Assembly: GCA_963758635.1 (NCBI GenBank)
Contig: CAVWWD010000003.1
Location: 832,001 to 896,000, forward strand
Origin: an uncultured Candidatus Rokubacteria bacterium
Lineage (GTDB): Bacteria; Methylomirabilota; Methylomirabilia; Rokubacteriales; CSP1-6
Direction: 5' to 3'
Length of the DNA: 64,000 bases
In this document: one piece after another, positions 40,167 through 50,255 of the stretch
How the letters are laid out: every line of letters begins with the position of its first letter
Numbering within the stretch: position 1 is the stretch's first letter
Notes under the pieces: model-generated
Seen by the model: only the letters and a program-made list of their open reading frames with translations
The model's database searches: none
What the model was told of the DNA's origin: nothing
Translations under genes and position numbers: made by a program

Positions 40167-42614
40167 ATGCCGCGCCGAAAGAGCACACCGCCCCGAAGGA
40201 GCACACCGAAGAAGACGCCCGGGACGAGTCCTGCCACGACGGTTGCCAGGACCACCGCACGGCCCACGGTGAGCGGGCCGAAGAGCGGCGTCGATGCGAT
40301 CACCGACGCGGCCACCGCGAAGATGGCGGGAACGGAGGCCGTCGCCGCCGCCTTTCCGTTCAACGCGGCAAAGCCGTCGGAATTCGGGGCGGGGGCCCAC
40401 CGGCCAGGGGCCAGACCGTCGAGCCGCCGCATCCCAGTGTGGCGGGGAGCACGCTCACCGAGATCAACGCCTCGGACAAGGTCGGCAGCGGCAATCCGCC
40501 CGCGAGCTTCAACCCGGGCAATGCGTCGCTCGATCGCGTCCGCGTCGATTCGGGCGGACGCGCGCTGACGACCAACCAGGGCGTGCCGGTCGCCGACAAC
40601 CAGAACTCGCTCAAGGCCGGTCTGCGCGGGCCCGCCCTGCTGGAGGATTTCATTCTCCGCGAGAAGATCACGCACTTCGACCATGAGCGCATCCCCGAAC
40701 GCATCGTCCACGCGCGCGGCTCGGGCGCGCACGGCTACTTCGAATGCTACGAGCCGCTGACGCGACCTCACGCGCGCGTCCATCTTCGCCGAAGCCGGCA
40801 AGCGCACGCCGGTGTTCGTGCGCTTCTCGACGGTCGCCGGCGAGCGCGGCTCGACCGACACCGCGCGCGACGTGCGCGGCTTCGCCGTCAAGTTCTACAC
40901 CGACGAAGGCAACTGGGATCTCGTCGGCAACAACATCCCGGTGTTCTTCATCCAGGACGCGATGAAGTTCCCGGACGTCATCCACGCGGTCAAGCCCGAG
41001 CCGCACCACGGCATGCCGCAGGCGGCCTCCGCGCACGACACGTTCTGGGATTTCGTCTCGCTCATGCCGGAGACCACCCACATGCTGATGTGGGTGATGT
41101 CGGACCGCGCGATCCCGCGCAGCTACCGGATGATGCAGGGCTTCGGCGTCCACACATTCCGCTTCGTGAACGCGGCCGGCGAGTCGCGTTCGTCAAGTTC
41201 CACTGGAACCCGATCGCGGGCACGCATTCGCTGGCGTGGGACGAGGCGGTCAAGATCTCCGGCGCCGATCCGGACTTCCACCGCCGCGACCTGTGGGAAG
41301 CGATCGAGGCCGGCGCCTATCCCGAGTGGGAGCTCGGCATCCAGGTGTTCACCGAGCGAGGAGGCCGAGCGGTTCACCTTCGACGTGCTCGACGCGACCA
41401 AGCTCATTCCGGAAGAGCTGGTGCCGCTGACGCCGATCGGCCGCATGGTGCTAAATCGCAACCCCGACAATTTCTTCGCCGAGACCGAGCAGGTCGCATT
41501 CTGCACCGCGCACATCGTGCCGGGGCTCGACTTCAGCAACGATCCGCTGCTCGCCGGCCGCATCCACTCGTACGTCGACACGCAGATCTCGCGGCTGGGC
41601 GGGCCGAATTTCCACGAGATCCCGATCAACGCGCCGGTCGCGCAGGTCCACAACAACCAGCGCGACGGCATGCATCGGCAGGCGATCCCCCGCGGCCGCG
41701 TCGCCTACGAGCCGAATTCGCTCGGCGGCGGCTGTCCGTTCCAGGCCGGCGCGCAGGGCTTCATGTCGTTCCCGCAGCCGATGGAAGAGCACAAGGTGCG
41801 CGGCAAGCCGGAGAAATTCGCCGAGCACTACAACCAGGCGACGCTCTTCTGGAACAGCCAGACGCGACGATCGAGAAGCAGCACATCATCCGCGCGTTCC
41901 GCTTCGAGCTCACCAAGGTGCAGACGCCGCGGTCCGCGAGCGCGTCGTGGCGCAGCTGCGCAACGTCGCCGAAGAACTGGCGACAAGCGGTGGCCGACGG
42001 CCTCGGCATGACCGAGCTGCCGGATCCGCTGCCGAAGGTGCTCGCAGCGCGCCCCGAAGCCGGAAGTCGCAGACGTCGCGCGGCGCTGTCGCTGTTTGCC
42101 CGGCCCGGGCACGGACGGCATCAAGACCCGGCGCGATCGCGATCCTGGTCGCCGACGGGTCGATGGCGCGGCGGCCGCTGCGCATGCACGAGGCGCTGGC
42201 GCGCAGGGCGCGGTGCCGCGCTTCGTCGGCGTCAAGCTCGGCCGCGTGCAGCCAGCGCGAGCGGCGAGCTCGATCGAAGTCGAGGTGTCGATGGAAGCCG
42301 CACCGCGCGGTGGTGTGGGACGCGATGATCGTGCCGCGACGGCGAGCGCGCGAGCAGACGCTGGGCGCGAGCGGCCACGCGCTCGAATTCCTGAAGGACC
42401 AGTATCGGCATTGCAAGCCGATCCTGCTCATGGGCTCGGCATCGGCGCTGCTCGATGCGGCCGGACATTCCGCCGGCGCTCCCCTCGGGACGAAGCGGAT
42501 CCCGGACTGCTCCAGTTCGGTGCGCGATAGAGCCGCGGCCGCCTGCCGGCCTTCATCGAGGCGCTCGCCAAGCATCGACATTTCGAGCGCGAAACGGATC
42601 CGCCACGGGTGTGA
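40167..42614 (+). CDS. katE: Large-subunit catalase (HPII type), with many indels
   Basis: [40 protein letters not shown]-terminal DJ-1-like domain; HRHFERE. Confidence 0.9.
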
Positions 42615-44363: not shown

Positions 44364-45480
44364 ATGTTCCCTTCGGGCCCGCTCCGGTCCGTCATGAAGA
44401 AGGTGGCGTCCCGCCTGCCGTACGTCGGCCGGCTCATGGCCGAGCGCACGATCATCGCCGGCGAGCGCGATCGGATCGACGAGGAGCGCGTGGCGGTGGC
44501 GCGGGATCGCGACCGCATCGCGGCGGAGCGCGACGGGCTCGCGAGCGAGCGCGACCGCCTCCTCGCCGGGCGCGATGAGCTCCTCGCCGACAACGCCGCG
44601 CTCAGGATCCAGGTGGGCGCGGTCGAATCGGAGCGGGACCGCTACAAGGCGTGGATGCCTCCCGGGCACTACTACTCGCCCGTGCCGTCGCTCGACGAGG
44701 TCCGCGCCCGCGAGGCCCAGATCTTCGGCCCGCCGCCCGCGACCCTGCCGGGCGTGGACCTGAACGAGGAGGAACAGTGGGCGCTCCTCGACACGCTCGC
44801 CCCGTACATCCGGGAACAGCCGTTCGGAACGCGGCGTCGCGCCGGGCAGCGCTACTGCTTCGACAACCTCTACTACTCCCACTACGACGCCGTCTTCCTC
44901 TACGCCATGATCCGCCACCTGCGGCCGCGGCGGATCGTCGAGATCGGGTCCGGCCATTCCTCGTGCGTCATCCTCGACACCAACGACCTGCACTTCGCGG
45001 GCGCCATCGCCTGCACCTTCGTCGAGCCCCATCCCGAGGCGCTCCTCGCGCTCATCCGCGAGACGGATCGCGAGCGGGTGGAGATCGTCGCCCGCCCGCT
45101 CCAGGACGTGGACGCCGCGCGCTTCGAGGCGCTCGAGGCGAACAACGTCCTGATCGTCGATTCCACCCACGTGTCGAAGACGGGGAGCGACGTGAACCGG
45201 CTCCTCTTCAACGTCCTCCCGCGACTCCACGCCGGGGTCCGCGTGCACGTCCACGAACGTCTTCTTTCCCTTCGAGTACCCGCGCGCGTGGGTGCTCGAG
45301 GGGCGCGCCTGGAACGAGGCGTACCTGATGCGGGCGTTCCTGCAATACAACGCGGCGTTCCGCATCGAGCTCTTCAACACCTTCCTCGACGCCACGGACC
45401 GGGAGCGGTTCCTCGCCGCGGCGCCGCTCTGCGTCGAGACGAGCTATCCGGGAGGAAGCATCTGGCTTCGTAAGGCGTAG
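44364..45480 (+). CDS. Class I SAM-dependent methyltransferase with an N-terminal coiled coil (indel near 45260)
   Basis: PGHYYSPVP; RRIVEIGSGHSS; IVDSTHVSKTGSDVN; WNEAYLMRAFL. Confidence 0.85.
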
Positions 45481-45624
45481 GAGCGGGCGTCTCCGGCGGG
45501 CGAGCGCGCGCGGTACAGGCGCATCCGGCTCGCGTGGCAGCGGGGCGCTGGCGTGTGACGGCGGCCGCGCGCCGGTGGTACCATCCGGACGGCGGCCAGC
45601 CCACTGACGAGAGGAGCGATCCCC

Positions 45625-46803
45625 ATGGACCTCAACTACTCCGCCCAGGAGACCGCGTTCCGCGACAACGTCCGCTCGTGGCTGTCCGCGAACCTGCCCA
45701 CCGACCTCCGCGACAAGGTGACCAACTACCAGGAGCTGACCAAGGACGACCTCCTGCGCTGGCACAAGATCCTCGCGAAGAAGGGCTGGATCGCTCCGGA
45801 GTGGCCGGAGGAGTGGGGCGGCACGGGCTGGAACGTGGTGCAGCGCTACATCTTCGAGGAGGAGTGCGGCTACGCGGGCTGCCCGCCGCTGGTCGCCTTC
45901 GGCCTCCGGATGTGCGCGCCGGTGCTGTTCCGGTTCGGCAGCGACGCCCAGAAGAAGCAGTACCTGCCGCGGATCTACCAGGGCGAGGACTTCTGGTGCC
46001 AGGGCTACTCGGAGCCGGGCTCGGGCTCGGACCTGGCCTCGCTCAAGACGCGCGCGGTGCGCCAGGGCGATCACTACGTGGTCACCGGCCAGAAGATCTG
46101 GACGACCATGGCGCATCACGCCGACTGGATCTTCTGCCTGGTGCGGACGGACGCGAGCCAGGCCAAGCGCCAGGAGGGCATCTCGTTCCTCCTGATCGAC
46201 ATGCGGACGCCCGGCATCACGGTGCGGCCGATCATCCTGATGGACGGCGGCCACGACGTGAACGAGGTGTTCTTCGACGAGGTGAGAGTGCCCGTCGAGA
46301 ACCTGGTCCACGAGGAGGGGAAGGGCTGGACGGTGGCCAAGCACCTCCTCGGCTACGAGCGCATGGGCAGCGGCCGGATCGGCGCGTCCAAGCGCGAGCT
46401 GGCCACGCTCAAGACGCTGGCGGCGAGCCAGACGAAGGACGGCAAGCCCCTGATCGAGGATCCGCGATTCCGCGACCGCCTCACGCGCGTGGAGGTGGAG
46501 CTGATGGCGCTGGAGATCACCAACCTCCGGTTCCTGGACCAGCTCCGCGGCGGCCGGCCGCCGGGCGCCGAGGTGTCCTTGCTCAAGATCAAGGGCACGG
46601 AGATCCAGCAGTCCCTCACCGAGCTGATGATGCAGACCGCGGGGCCCTTCGCCCAGGCCTTCCGGCCGGTGGACAGCATGGACTTCGACTACTTCACCTC
46701 GCGGCTCGCCGCGCGCTACTGCAACATGCGCAAGACCACGATCTACGCGGGCTCGAACGAGATCCAGCGCAACATCATCTCCAAGATGACGCTCGGCCTG
46801 TGA
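45625..46803 (+). CDS. Acyl-CoA dehydrogenase (PimC-like large subunit)
   Basis: WCQGYSEPGSGSDLASL; GQKIWTT; NEVFFDEV; TIYAGSNEIQRNII. Confidence 0.9.
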   Translation: MDLNYSAQETAFRDNVRSWLSANLPTDLRDKVTNYQELTKDDLLRWHKILAKKGWIAPEWPEEWGGTGWNVVQRYIFEEECGYAGCPPLVAFGLRMCAPVLFRFGSDAQKKQYLPRIYQGEDFWCQGYSEPGSGSDLASLKTRAVRQGDHYVVTGQKIWTTMAHHADWIFCLVRTDASQAKRQEGISFLLIDMRTPGITVRPIILMDGGHDVNEVFFDEVRVPVENLVHEEGKGWTVAKHLLGYERMGSGRIGASKRELATLKTLAASQTKDGKPLIEDPRFRDRLTRVEVELMALEITNLRFLDQLRGGRPPGAEVSLLKIKGTEIQQSLTELMMQTAGPFAQAFRPVDSMDFDYFTSRLAARYCNMRKTTIYAGSNEIQRNIISKMTLGL

Positions 46804-46813
46804 CGGGCGCGCC

Positions 46814-47950
46814 ATGAACTTCGAGCTCTCCGACGAGCAGCAGCTCCTCGCCGACAGCCTCAAGCGCTTTCTCGCCAACGACTACACGTTCGACGCGCGG
46901 GCGAAGATCGTCGCCTCTCCCAAGGGCTGGAGCCCGGAGATGTGGGGGAAGCTCGCCGAGCTGGGCCTGGCCGGCCTGCCGTTCTCTCGCGACCACGGTG
47001 GCTTCGGCGGCGGCGCGGGCGACGTGATGGTCGTGATGGAGGCGATCGGCGAGGGGCTCCTCGTCGAGCCGTACCTGGCCACCGTGGGCCTGGGCGGGCA
47101 GTTCGTGGCGCGAGGCGGCTCCGCGGCCCAGCAGAAGAAGCTCTTGCCGCTGGTGGCGGAGGGCCGCTGCCGCATGGCCTTCGCCCACCTCGAGCGCGGG
47201 GCGCGCTACGACCTCGCCCACGTGGGCCTGCGGGCCCGGCGCGAGGGCGACGGCTTCGTCCTGGACGGCACCAAGCACGCCGTCCTCCACGGCGGCGCCG
47301 CGGACGTGCTGGTGGTCTCGGCGCGCACCGCGGGAGCGGACACCGACGCCCAGGGGCTCAGCCTGCTGCTGGTCGAGCGCGAGTCGCCGGGCGTCACGGT
47401 CAAGGAGTTCCGCACCATCGACGAGCTGCGCGCCGCCGACATCACCTTTGCCGGCGTGCGGGTGTCGCGCGACGCGCTGGTCGGTCTCGAGGGCGCGGGG
47501 CTGCCCCTGGTGGAGGAGGTGGTCGACTACGCCACCGCGCTCCTGTGCGCGGAGGCGGTGGGCTGCATCCGCTACGCGAATGACACCACGCTCGAGTACC
47601 TGAAGACGCGGCGGCAGTTCGGCGTGCCGATCGGCAGCTTCCAGGCCCTGCAGCACCGCATGGTGGACATGGTGATCACCTACGAGCAGGCGCGCTCGAT
47701 GGCCTACCTCGCCTGCGTCAAGGTCGACACCGCGGGCGCGGCGGAGCGCCGGCGCGTGGTCTCCGCGGCGAAGGTGAAGCTCGCCGACGCCTGCCGCCAC
47801 ATCAGCCAGGAGTCCGTCCAGCTCCACGGCGGCATGGGGATGACCGACGAGCTCAAGGTGAGCCACACGTTCCGCCGGCTGACCATGATCGGCCAGACCT
47901 TCGGCGACGCCGACCACCACCTCGAGCGCTTCGCCGGCGCCGGCGTGTGA
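46814..47950 (+). CDS. Acyl-CoA dehydrogenase (PimD-like small subunit)
   Basis: RRQFGVPIGSFQALQHRMVDM; VQLHGGMGMTDE; FGDADHHL. Confidence 0.9.
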   Translation: MNFELSDEQQLLADSLKRFLANDYTFDARAKIVASPKGWSPEMWGKLAELGLAGLPFSRDHGGFGGGAGDVMVVMEAIGEGLLVEPYLATVGLGGQFVARGGSAAQQKKLLPLVAEGRCRMAFAHLERGARYDLAHVGLRARREGDGFVLDGTKHAVLHGGAADVLVVSARTAGADTDAQGLSLLLVERESPGVTVKEFRTIDELRAADITFAGVRVSRDALVGLEGAGLPLVEEVVDYATALLCAEAVGCIRYANDTTLEYLKTRRQFGVPIGSFQALQHRMVDMVITYEQARSMAYLACVKVDTAGAAERRRVVSAAKVKLADACRHISQESVQLHGGMGMTDELKVSHTFRRLTMIGQTFGDADHHLERFAGAGV

Positions 47951-47952
47951 CG

Positions 47953-48402
47953 ATGCTCGGCCGCCGCGCCTTCCTCGCCGGCGCCATCGCCGCCGCGCTC
48001 GCCGCGGCTCTGCCGGCGCGCGCGACGGACAAGCCCACGGTGACCGTCTACAAGTCGCCCACCTGAGGCTGCTGCACGGCGTGGGTGGGCCACCTGCGCA
48101 CGAACGGCTATCCGGTGAAGGCGATCGACACCGACGACCTCCCGCCCGTCAAGCGCAAGCACGGCGTGCCCGCGACGATCGAGGGGTGCCACACCGCGCT
48201 GGTCGAGGGCTACGTGATCGAGGGCCACGTGCCCGCCGACCTGATCGACCGGCTGCTGCGCGAGCGGCCGAAGGTGGCCGGCCTCGCGGTCGCGGGGATG
48301 CCCGCGGGCTCGCCGGGCATGGAGACGTCGGGCAAGCCGGAGCCGTACAAGGTCTGGAGCTTCGACCGGGCCGGCAAGACCGCCGTCTACGCGACGCGGT
48401 AG
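47953..48402 (+). CDS. DUF411/CopG-type metal-binding protein with in-frame UGA (probable selenocysteine) at codon 38
   Basis: MLGRRAFL Tat signal..VYKSPT-TGA-GCCTAWVGHL..CHTA..IEGHVPA..GMPAGSPGME in one frame; TGA at 48064-48066. Confidence 0.85.
48079..48099 (+). promoter_or_regulatory. SECIS-like hairpin
   Basis: GCGUGGGUG-GGC-CACCUGCGC, a 9-bp stem starting 12 nt after the UGA, with a G-first apical loop. Confidence 0.6.
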
Positions 48403-49052
48403 GGGGGGCCGGCACGCCGCATCTGCGTGCCCGCCGAGTCTGCTGCCGGGGTGATCGAAGATGCCTCGGTGCCGTAGGTGAGACGCTCGATCCCTCAGCC
48501 ACCCCTGCCGCGCGAGCCGCTAGGCCCAGCTCACAGGACTCAATGCAGCCTCGGAAGGCTCGAAGTCCACATTGCGCATACGAGGTCTTCGGGTGTCCGA
48601 CCAGCGACACGGATACTTTCCTGACGAGCCGTCCCGGTGTCAGGGATCGGCGTTTCGACCGGTCTCGTAGACAACCTCGCCCTTCTGCTCGAGATCCCAG
48701 AGGTGGTGTGCCAACAGCTCTGCGACCTCTCTCGTATCAGCGTCGAGTGCCAGGAGGGCTGGGGTATGGAGCTGCGTATGAACACCCCAACTCCGTCGCC
48801 GTGTCGAGGATGATCGCGTCCATGTACGTGAGGTCAGTGTATCCAGCGACTCACCCACCGCCCCTGAAAGCAGCAGAAGTGGTCCCGGGTGCCACCGGCA
48901 TCCCTGATGATCATCCTTCCTCGCGCCACCGATCTCTGAGGGGGCTTCCGATGGGGCTCGCCCACGTACCGGAACGCATCCAGGGATTCGTCTTGCACAT
49001 CAACGATCGACAGCGCGGCCGCTGGCCAACAGGATCGATTCCTTCCATACGA

Positions 49053-50255
49053 CTATGCGTTCGGCCCGTTCGCCGGACGCGGTTCGAGCACGATTCCAGC
49101 CAGCGCAACAATGCAGAAGGCCGCACTCGCGTAAAAGGTGAAGGACGCCCCGAGTTGATCCCACAACAGGCCGGCCAATACGCTCGCGAACAGCATGGTC
49201 AGACCGGCAAGTAAATTGAAGAAGCCGAACGCCGTGCCGCGAAGGTCTGCCGGCGCGGTCTCGGCAACCAGGGTTGCCAGCAAACCCTGAGTCATTCCCA
49301 TGTGCAAGCCCCAAAGAAGGATGCCGACAAACACCGTGCCCAGGGAGCTGCTGTATGCGAGCGCAAGATCAGCAGCGATTAACACCGCCAAGCCGATCGC
49401 CAGGAGCTTCGCGCGGCTCACGCGATCGGAGAGCTTACCGAATGGATAGGCGGACACGGCATAGACGATATTCATCGCAACCAGGACCAACGGTATCCAT
49501 GCAATCGGCAGCCCGCCTTGCTGGGCGCGCAGCACCAAGAACGCCTCGCTGAACCGCGCCAGGGTGAAGACGGCTCCGACACAGACCACCCACCAGTACG
49601 CCTTGCTCAGTCGCTTGATCTCGCACCAGTGGATGGGATTGACGCGCTTGGCGGGCGTCACTCGCTCAGGCTCCTGAACGCCGACCAGGAGCAAGCCAGC
49701 GGCGAGAAAGCCTGGAATGACTGCCACCCAGAAGACGACGCGGAAATCGTTCGACCAAAGCAGCATCAGCCCGATTGCCAGCAGCGGGCCGGTGAAGGCA
49801 CCCACGGTGTCCAAGGACTGGCGCAGCCCGAATGCCGCTCCACGCAGGGCAGGGGGCGCAAGGTCCGCCACCAGCGCATCGCGCGGCGCGCCTCGAATTC
49901 CTTTACCGATGCGATCCAGGAAGCGGGCAGTGAGAACCATTCCCGTGCTGGCGGCGATGGCGAACAGCGGTTTGCTGAGCGCGCCGAGCCCATAGCCGAT
50001 GACCGCCAGCATCTTGCGGCGTCCAAGGTAGTCGCTCAAGGTGCCGGAGAACACCTTCACGATCAGTGCGGTCGCTTCGGCCACGCCCTCGACTAGGCCC
50101 ACGGTAAAGGCGCTCGCCCCAAGTGCGGTGAGCATGAATACTGGGAGCAGGCTGTGAATCATCTCGGACGAGATATCCGCCAGCATGCTCACGAAGCCGA
50201 GAACCCAAATGCCCGTCGGGATCCGCAGCGAGGCGCTCTTCGTGGAATGGTTCAT
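49053..50255 (-). CDS. MFS transporter
   Basis: VSMLADISSEMIH; GTLSDYLGRRK; DRIGKGIRGAPRDAL; ~12 TMs; lower-GC codon usage. Confidence 0.9.
   Translation of the reverse strand: MNHSTKSASLRIPTGIWVLGFVSMLADISSEMIHSLLPVFMLTALGASAFTVGLVEGVAEATALIVKVFSGTLSDYLGRRKMLAVIGYGLGALSKPLFAIAASTGMVLTARFLDRIGKGIRGAPRDALVADLAPPALRGAAFGLRQSLDTVGAFTGPLLAIGLMLLWSNDFRVVFWVAVIPGFLAAGLLLVGVQEPERVTPAKRVNPIHWCEIKRLSKAYWWVVCVGAVFTLARFSEAFLVLRAQQGGLPIAWIPLVLVAMNIVYAVSAYPFGKLSDRVSRAKLLAIGLAVLIAADLALAYSSSLGTVFVGILLWGLHMGMTQGLLATLVAETAPADLRGTAFGFFNLLAGLTMLFASVLAGLLWDQLGASFTFYASAAFCIVALAGIVLEPRPANGPNA

Follow-up and report, generated by a model that had tools for sequence, protein, structure and literature searches.

CopG is a periplasmic thioredoxin-like protein. 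It holds a Cys-bridged tetranuclear Cu cluster through a CxCC motif and two methionines, and is proposed to interconvert Cu(I) and Cu(II) (sections of PMC7558416, PMC8456105 and PMC8872213). The copG gene of V. parahaemolyticus is induced by copper, according to a part of PMC12341060. Metal-related proteins also occur among predicted selenoproteins: the relevant sections of the 2026 selenoprotein catalogue (PMC13188914) include CopZ-family 2Fe-2S proteins, the SO_0444 Cu/Zn efflux transporter, a UxxC cation ATPase and MbdU. Because the lists of predicted selenoproteins already hold copper-linked members of other families, a selenocysteine (Sec) form of CopG does not constitute a new category.

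The window, a stretch of 64,000 nucleotides from an uncultured Candidatus Rokubacteria bacterium of soil, contains a DUF411/CopG gene with an in-frame TGA at the metal-binding motif. The preferred explanation as a whole, given a probability of about 0.72, is an exported Sec protein which carries a CopG-type copper cluster and, outside the cytoplasm, converts Cu(I) and Cu(II) into each other. The features of the locus are as follows.

45625..47950, + strand: two acyl-CoA dehydrogenase genes upstream, the second ending 2 nt before the ATG
47953..48402, + strand: full Sec-form DUF411/CopG gene, 149 aa, with Pfam PF04214, PDB 6WIS and Foldseek matches
47953..48024, + strand: predicted signal peptide, residues 1-24, with an RRAFL twin-arginine-like motif, a hydrophobic core and an A-R-A end (motif and hydropathy script)
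48064..48066, + strand: in-frame TGA, codon 38, aligned with Cys13 of P. aeruginosa CopG; likely selenocysteine
48064..48075, + strand: U-G-C-C motif (UxCC), which likewise forms a UxxC of thioredoxin type where helix 1 begins
48079..48099, + strand: SECIS-like hairpin, 9-bp stem 48079-48087/48091-48099 with a G-first 3-nt loop, GGC, at 48088-48090
48187..48321, + strand: other invariant putative copper ligands C79, H80, H92, M116 and M123, aligned to CopG C54, H55, H67, M90 and M97

An earlier note had described a 149-residue frame from ATG 47953 (MLGRRAFL..) through VYKSPT-TGA-GCC, and the sequence agrees: the frame crosses the TGA in the context YKSPT-TGA-GCC and ends at TAG 48400-48402, with no other in-frame stop. 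The remark in the same note that the open reading frame track calls only the part after the UGA is likewise correct; standard calling yields a 105-aa piece that begins with GTG (48085-48402). The nearest matches in the protein databases are truncated products of 95-105 aa (P0002, P0009, P0020, P0051).

The protein belongs to DUF411 (PF04214) with 89 bits against a Pfam cut-off of 27 (E=1.6e-25). Read through the TGA, it matches P. aeruginosa CopG (PDB 6WIS) with E=2.8e-28 and 42% identity, and the UGA falls, as had been claimed, exactly on the first Cys of CGCC, the position of Cys13 in the CopG chain (PDB 6WIS/6WJE). The CxCC and M-x6-M signature of DUF411/CopG is present with U replacing the first C (UGCC). 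An AlphaFold model built from a 140-sequence alignment has a pLDDT of 96.5; it replaced a poor single-sequence model (pLDDT 54.5). Foldseek superposes the predicted model on 6WIS with a TM score of 0.93 and an rmsd of 1.3 A over 120 columns, covering the thioredoxin-like fold and a C-terminal extension. Residues U/C38, C40, C41, W44, C79, H80, H92, M116 and M123 are invariant in 140/140 aligned homologs, and the CC, CH, GH and M-x6-M motifs are kept in all 113 full-length Sec forms (113/113).

The TGA is conserved well beyond this genome. Among 61 related genomes, 25 matches span the TGA column, 15 with TGA (own copy included) and 10 with TGC; alignment confirms the column for the 15 TGA loci. 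A phylum search of 251 genomes gave 74 matches in 65 genomes. Three of these miss the site and one is a fragment with two TGA, leaving 70 full matches, 57 with one TGA and 13 with none; TAA or TAG occurs at the Sec site in 0/70. In a subset of 40 of these phylum loci, the very same column holds TGA in 37 and TGC in 3. A GTDB scan with a TGA-specific pattern returned at least 120 loci; the matches listed hold 87 full DUF411 homologs and 33 chance matches. All 87 TGA homologs among the matches listed are MAGs, and their record titles place them in at least seven phyla: Chloroflexota (21), Acidobacteriota (16), Gemmatimonadota (14), Pseudomonadota (12), Actinomycetota (12), Rokubacteria/Methylomirabilota (6), Binatota (2) and Myxococcota (2), with no phylum in the title of 2. 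A metagenome pattern allowing TGA, TGC or TGT returned at least 119 loci, 114 of them with a homolog over the column. Among the matches listed, 18 of the 114 have TGA and 96 have Cys, which suggests that about one in six DUF411 genes in that part of the metagenome sample is a TGA form. Homologs in many phyla thus show TGA at the same column within a conserved frame, as the earlier note had proposed to check.

The genome carries selA, selB, the tRNA-Sec gene (selC) and selD, all four genes that were to be looked for. Intact copies of selB and tRNA-Sec lie in a cluster with selA. In this assembly one frameshift interrupts selA (G000:C10:236142-237487) and another selD (G000:C3:51092-52010); the former falls in a G run, and both are probably long-read errors. 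In the order, selA scores above cut-off in 55/61 genomes; no selA match was obtained in three of the 14 related genomes with TGA copies (G009, G023 and G026, which are MAGs). A coding-potential scan of the own genome gave 159 candidate in-frame TGAs, that of CopG included. Twenty of the 159, chosen by eye and other than CopG, were scanned; 19 match NCBIfam families, five above the curated cut-off. These candidates (L289-L308) comprise formate dehydrogenase alpha (FdhA), GrdA, a GrdB-like and a SelW-like protein, several UGSC-family members, peroxiredoxins (Prx), redoxins, and DsbA-like, rhodanese and YciW-related proteins. L298 (SDYV-U-PWC) has no NCBIfam match.

The claimed 9-bp hairpin with a G-first loop is present at 48079-48099, starting 12 nt after the TGA with its loop 21 nt after it. 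Section 5 of PMC13188914 gives as bSECIS criteria a loop of 3-9 nt with G in its opening two positions, a stem of 4-16 bp, a spacing of 16-37 nt and an energy of at most -7.5 kcal/mol. In an own implementation of these criteria (not bSECISearch), the hairpin passes with loop GGC, 9 bp, 21 nt and -21.1 kcal/mol. The comparison set for this element consists of 116 TGA and 106 Cys forms after removal of 4 duplicates. The same filter is passed by 72/116 Sec and 29/106 Cys forms; here, as in the comparisons that follow, the sets include kin that are not independent. The folding energy of the hairpin region is not unusual against shuffles (z = 0.19), so the support for the element is comparative. 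The mean pairing probability of its six core pairs is 0.46 in the 116 TGA forms versus 0.045 in the 106 Cys forms. Synonymous shuffles of the TGA forms pair at a mean of 0.13, so the W-V-x-H-L codons predispose to the stem and do not explain it. For the present gene the probability is 0.99, reached by 0/25 shuffles, and the contrast holds among close relatives (15 TGA vs 10 Cys, p=0.0008). Pairing exceeds 0.5 in only 55/116 TGA forms, and in 30/37 further TGA copies of the phylum. In TGA forms, positions +19/+27 show covariation (odds ratio 11, p=7e-7); in Cys forms they do not (1.1, p=0.84). Of five measures taken on the pair counts, percent paired, doubly changed cells and covariation score lie above 500/500 shuffles; the two pair-type measures do not lie above all 500, and one slid control ties the covariation score. 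RNAalifold over all 116 Sec forms gives no consensus structure. By lineage, the hairpin occurs in 12/12 Pseudomonadota, 10/12 Actinomycetota, 5/16 Acidobacteriota and 1/21 Chloroflexota.

The Chloroflexota TGA copies (21 among L057-L165) lie in genomes of which 20/21 have selA, yet the hairpin is found in a single one. These bacteria possibly use a different SECIS type.

Decoding of codon 38 as selenocysteine is, on these sequence comparisons, very likely. Checks of the reads, the Sec machinery and the homologs all failed to refute it. The assembly has many indel defects, which would fit a TGA that is a sequencing error, or a recent nonsense mutation in a pseudogene; that account deserves almost no credence. 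Contigs of four public runs over 47500-48900 (contigs, not raw reads) served as the read check. Short-read contigs from two different studies (X1 record 3 and X2 record 21) have no variant at 48064-48066, the codon whose reads were to be inspected, and X2 record 21 bridges it on both sides; it is possible that one of these runs is the source sample itself. The contigs depart from the window at 47981 and 47986, near the unchanged TGA. Run X6 has no cover at the codon, and the RNA run X12 gives only short partial contigs. The earlier observation that the other defects of the window are indels fits three single-base indels against short-read contigs at 48622, 48774 and 48826. Same-column TGA in more than 150 homologous loci (116 distinct plus 37, with few overlaps), together with the lack of TAA and TAG at the site in the unbiased phylum search, led to rejection of the error or pseudogene account on conservation data. 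It is likewise very improbable that the UGA is read as Cys or Trp, or that it terminates a peptide without function while translation from GTG 48085 yields a 105-aa product. The in-frame GTG and the hairpin's scarcity in Chloroflexota speak for it. Against a reading as Cys or Trp, TGA is the main stop of the genome (1481/2027 long genes), by which genome-wide UGA reassignment was ruled out, and the TGA form tracks selA: among the GTDB matches listed, selA is found in 84/87 genomes with the TGA form versus 8/33 with chance pattern matches, these genomes including kin that are not independent. The 105-aa product would be without signal peptide and metal motif, yet the part upstream of the TGA is kept in frame in all relatives.

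Each of the indels at 48622, 48774 and 48826 is seen against contigs of two or three runs. At about 40500-42500 the window also holds what is presumably a catalase-like gene, going by motifs in the open reading frame list, which appears split over several frames.

Export of the Sec-CopG protein is well supported by its predicted signal segment. The G-R-R-A-F-L stretch fits a twin-arginine motif and tatC is present in the genome, but the Pfam and NCBIfam Tat signal models do not match the protein. The earlier description as Tat-exported stands for export; for this lineage, the Tat route is no more than plausible. Close relatives also carry twin arginines, and other signal types appear to be the majority among Sec homologs elsewhere. 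A crude script finds a hydrophobic N-terminal segment in 109 of the 116 Sec forms, an RR-type motif in 25 and a lipobox-like sequence in 34.

The neighbours of the gene are acyl-CoA dehydrogenases and an MFS transporter and do not form a copper-resistance cluster. The acyl-CoA dehydrogenase genes are possibly co-transcribed with it; they are not a conserved partner, because relatives have different neighbours. A promoter and terminator scan of 45300-49100 found nothing. In this lineage the Sec copies have no conserved neighbourhood and are mostly solitary with varied neighbours. Copper genes lie near 2/15 Sec copies of close relatives with 1.5-kb flanks and near 1-2/17 with 2.5-kb flanks; 8/10 related Cys copies, largely of one clade, adjoin a P1B ATPase. 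Over all loci of at least 3 kb, copper genes are near 18/75 Sec and 21/52 Cys loci; flanks differ between the two sets, and two of the P1B matches counted have no clear Cu motif. Burkholderiales-type Sec loci contain multicopper oxidase-cupredoxin-CopG(U)-CusF clusters, and other Sec loci with copper context contain CusA/CusB and P1B ATPases. The own genome has a P1B ATPase and CusA/CusB-like genes elsewhere; queries for multicopper oxidase, CusF and cupredoxin gave no match in it.

Two side observations concern these neighbourhoods. At L051:3494-4036 the Sec-CopG gene is directly followed by the gene of a PCYCGC-motif protein (PF13798), whose family has catalogued Sec forms. Three loci (L055, L061, L115), whose records bear the names Streptomycetaceae and Bordetella parapertussis, fall with environmental Burkholderiales copies and have the same copper cluster; their titles or bins may be wrong.

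In the proposed mechanism, SelB with tRNA-Sec would bind the G-first loop 21 nt downstream of the UGA and insert Sec. The signal peptide would then direct the protein out of the cytoplasm, in this lineage probably through Tat. Outside, the selenolate may ligate Cu directly, or a U38-C41 selenenylsulfide may exchange electrons beside the cluster. A selenolate is a softer and more acidic nucleophile than a thiolate. As U38 also occupies the thioredoxin nucleophile position, Se may serve as Cu ligand, U38-C41 as redox switch, or both. Given Sec decoding, a copper-cluster role has good odds; overall it is likely, by a slightly smaller measure. It is less sure than the decoding because no copper genes lie near the present copy. 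The earlier claim of a Se-ligated copper/redox protein accordingly stands in part: the CopG fold and the other ligands are kept, and the Se-Cu ligation is extrapolated from CopG for a gene with no copper genes beside it.

The Sec form could also be a true selenoprotein that has left copper detoxification, acting as an exported UxxC selenol-disulfide oxidoreductase or on another soft metal (Ag, Hg, Au). In the model U38 immediately precedes helix 1 and C41 is part of the helix's first turn, as is canonical for a thioredoxin active site. After CopG the next-best Foldseek folds are NrdH and glutaredoxins, and NCBIfam gives weak glutaredoxin-like matches, Uxx-star among them, with scores far below the cut-offs. 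Such a role would also suit the Sec copies without copper genes nearby, which are the majority and nearly all of those in this lineage, and the genomes that hold a Sec and a Cys copy together (G041, G046, G259). More than half of the Cys loci are likewise without copper neighbours, however, and within complete Burkholderiales-type copper clusters Sec copies stand in for Cys copies. The non-thioredoxin CopG ligands C40, C79, H80, H92, M116 and M123 are all kept. The departure from copper is consequently held to be unlikely, and a redox role at a copper cluster is preferred because every extra CopG ligand is retained.

A quick, unrooted tree of 215/222 rows (seven short rows left out) over 121 columns requires at least 17 Sec/Cys changes, of which only 3 are forced by strongly supported branches. 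The present gene falls among records with Rokubacteria in their titles (support 94, not starred), in keeping with the 71% GC. Within this Rokubacteria-type group the Cys copies are interspersed with Sec copies and mostly no longer have the hairpin; the simplest reading would be a return from Sec to Cys, the tree being unrooted. One Cys copy (L326) has neighbours in common with two Sec copies (L317, L323), and its hairpin is still there (0.62); it is a candidate for a recent Sec-to-Cys change. A broader picture is tentative, and rather doubtful in its full extent. It takes Sec-CopG as a widespread family, about one sixth of the metagenome DUF411 genes among the matches listed and at least seven phyla, in which Sec directly ligates a multinuclear copper cluster, which would amount to a natural Se-bridged Cu site. 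Repeated Sec/Cys switches would come with matching gain or loss of a SECIS built from the gene's own W-V-x-H-L codons, and Chloroflexota would use a different SECIS.

DUF411, CopG and PF04214 are absent from the 119-family Table 1 of the 2026 catalogue (PMC13188914), and the main texts of deep-Sep (PMC12013277) and BSepDB (PMC13326102; main text only) do not mention DUF411/CopG. In NCBIfam (June 2026), no selenoprotein model comes near its cut-off for 140 family members. A literature search for DUF411 as selenoprotein or Sec-CopG found no report; Deng et al. 2026 and Haft and Tolstoy 2025 lie outside its scope and may bear on the point. The former describes novel candidates from groundwater MAGs including Methylomirabilota, as cited in PMC13188914. 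Sec-CopG is very likely a widespread selenoprotein family missing from the 119 families of that table. With it the bacterial selenoproteome gains a common family, whose members gene callers now cut to a 105-aa fragment lacking signal and motif, and selenium use becomes tied to copper handling outside the cytoplasm in uncultured bacteria that abound in soil and water. Structures with a tetranuclear copper cluster have been solved for the Cys form, so the Sec/Cys pairs, some near-orthologous and of one genus, offer a direct test of the effect of selenium in a copper-sulfur cluster. They also bear on why cells choose Sec over Cys.

The present protein resembles P. aeruginosa CopG (6WIS/6WJE) and Rhodobacter capsulatus CutG in its fold, its layout of signal peptide plus domain, and its CxCC, CH, GH and M-x6-M motifs. 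It differs from both in that the first Cys of CxCC is a UGA accompanied by a SECIS-like hairpin, and in that this copy lies outside any copper-resistance gene cluster. Like the thioredoxin-fold UxxC selenoproteins (Grx, Uxx-star, DsbA-like, redoxins), it has Sec as the N-terminal nucleophile of the fold and a bacterial SECIS behind it, but CopG's C-terminal extension and its additional Cys, His and Met ligands are missing from those proteins. The CopZ-family proteins, SO_0444, the UxxC cation ATPase and MbdU are similar as metal-resistance proteins in which Sec has been suggested to bind a metal (PMC13188914, in its Table 1 and section 7). In contrast to CopG, they belong to unrelated families, and none is homologous to a solved multicopper cluster at the Sec site.
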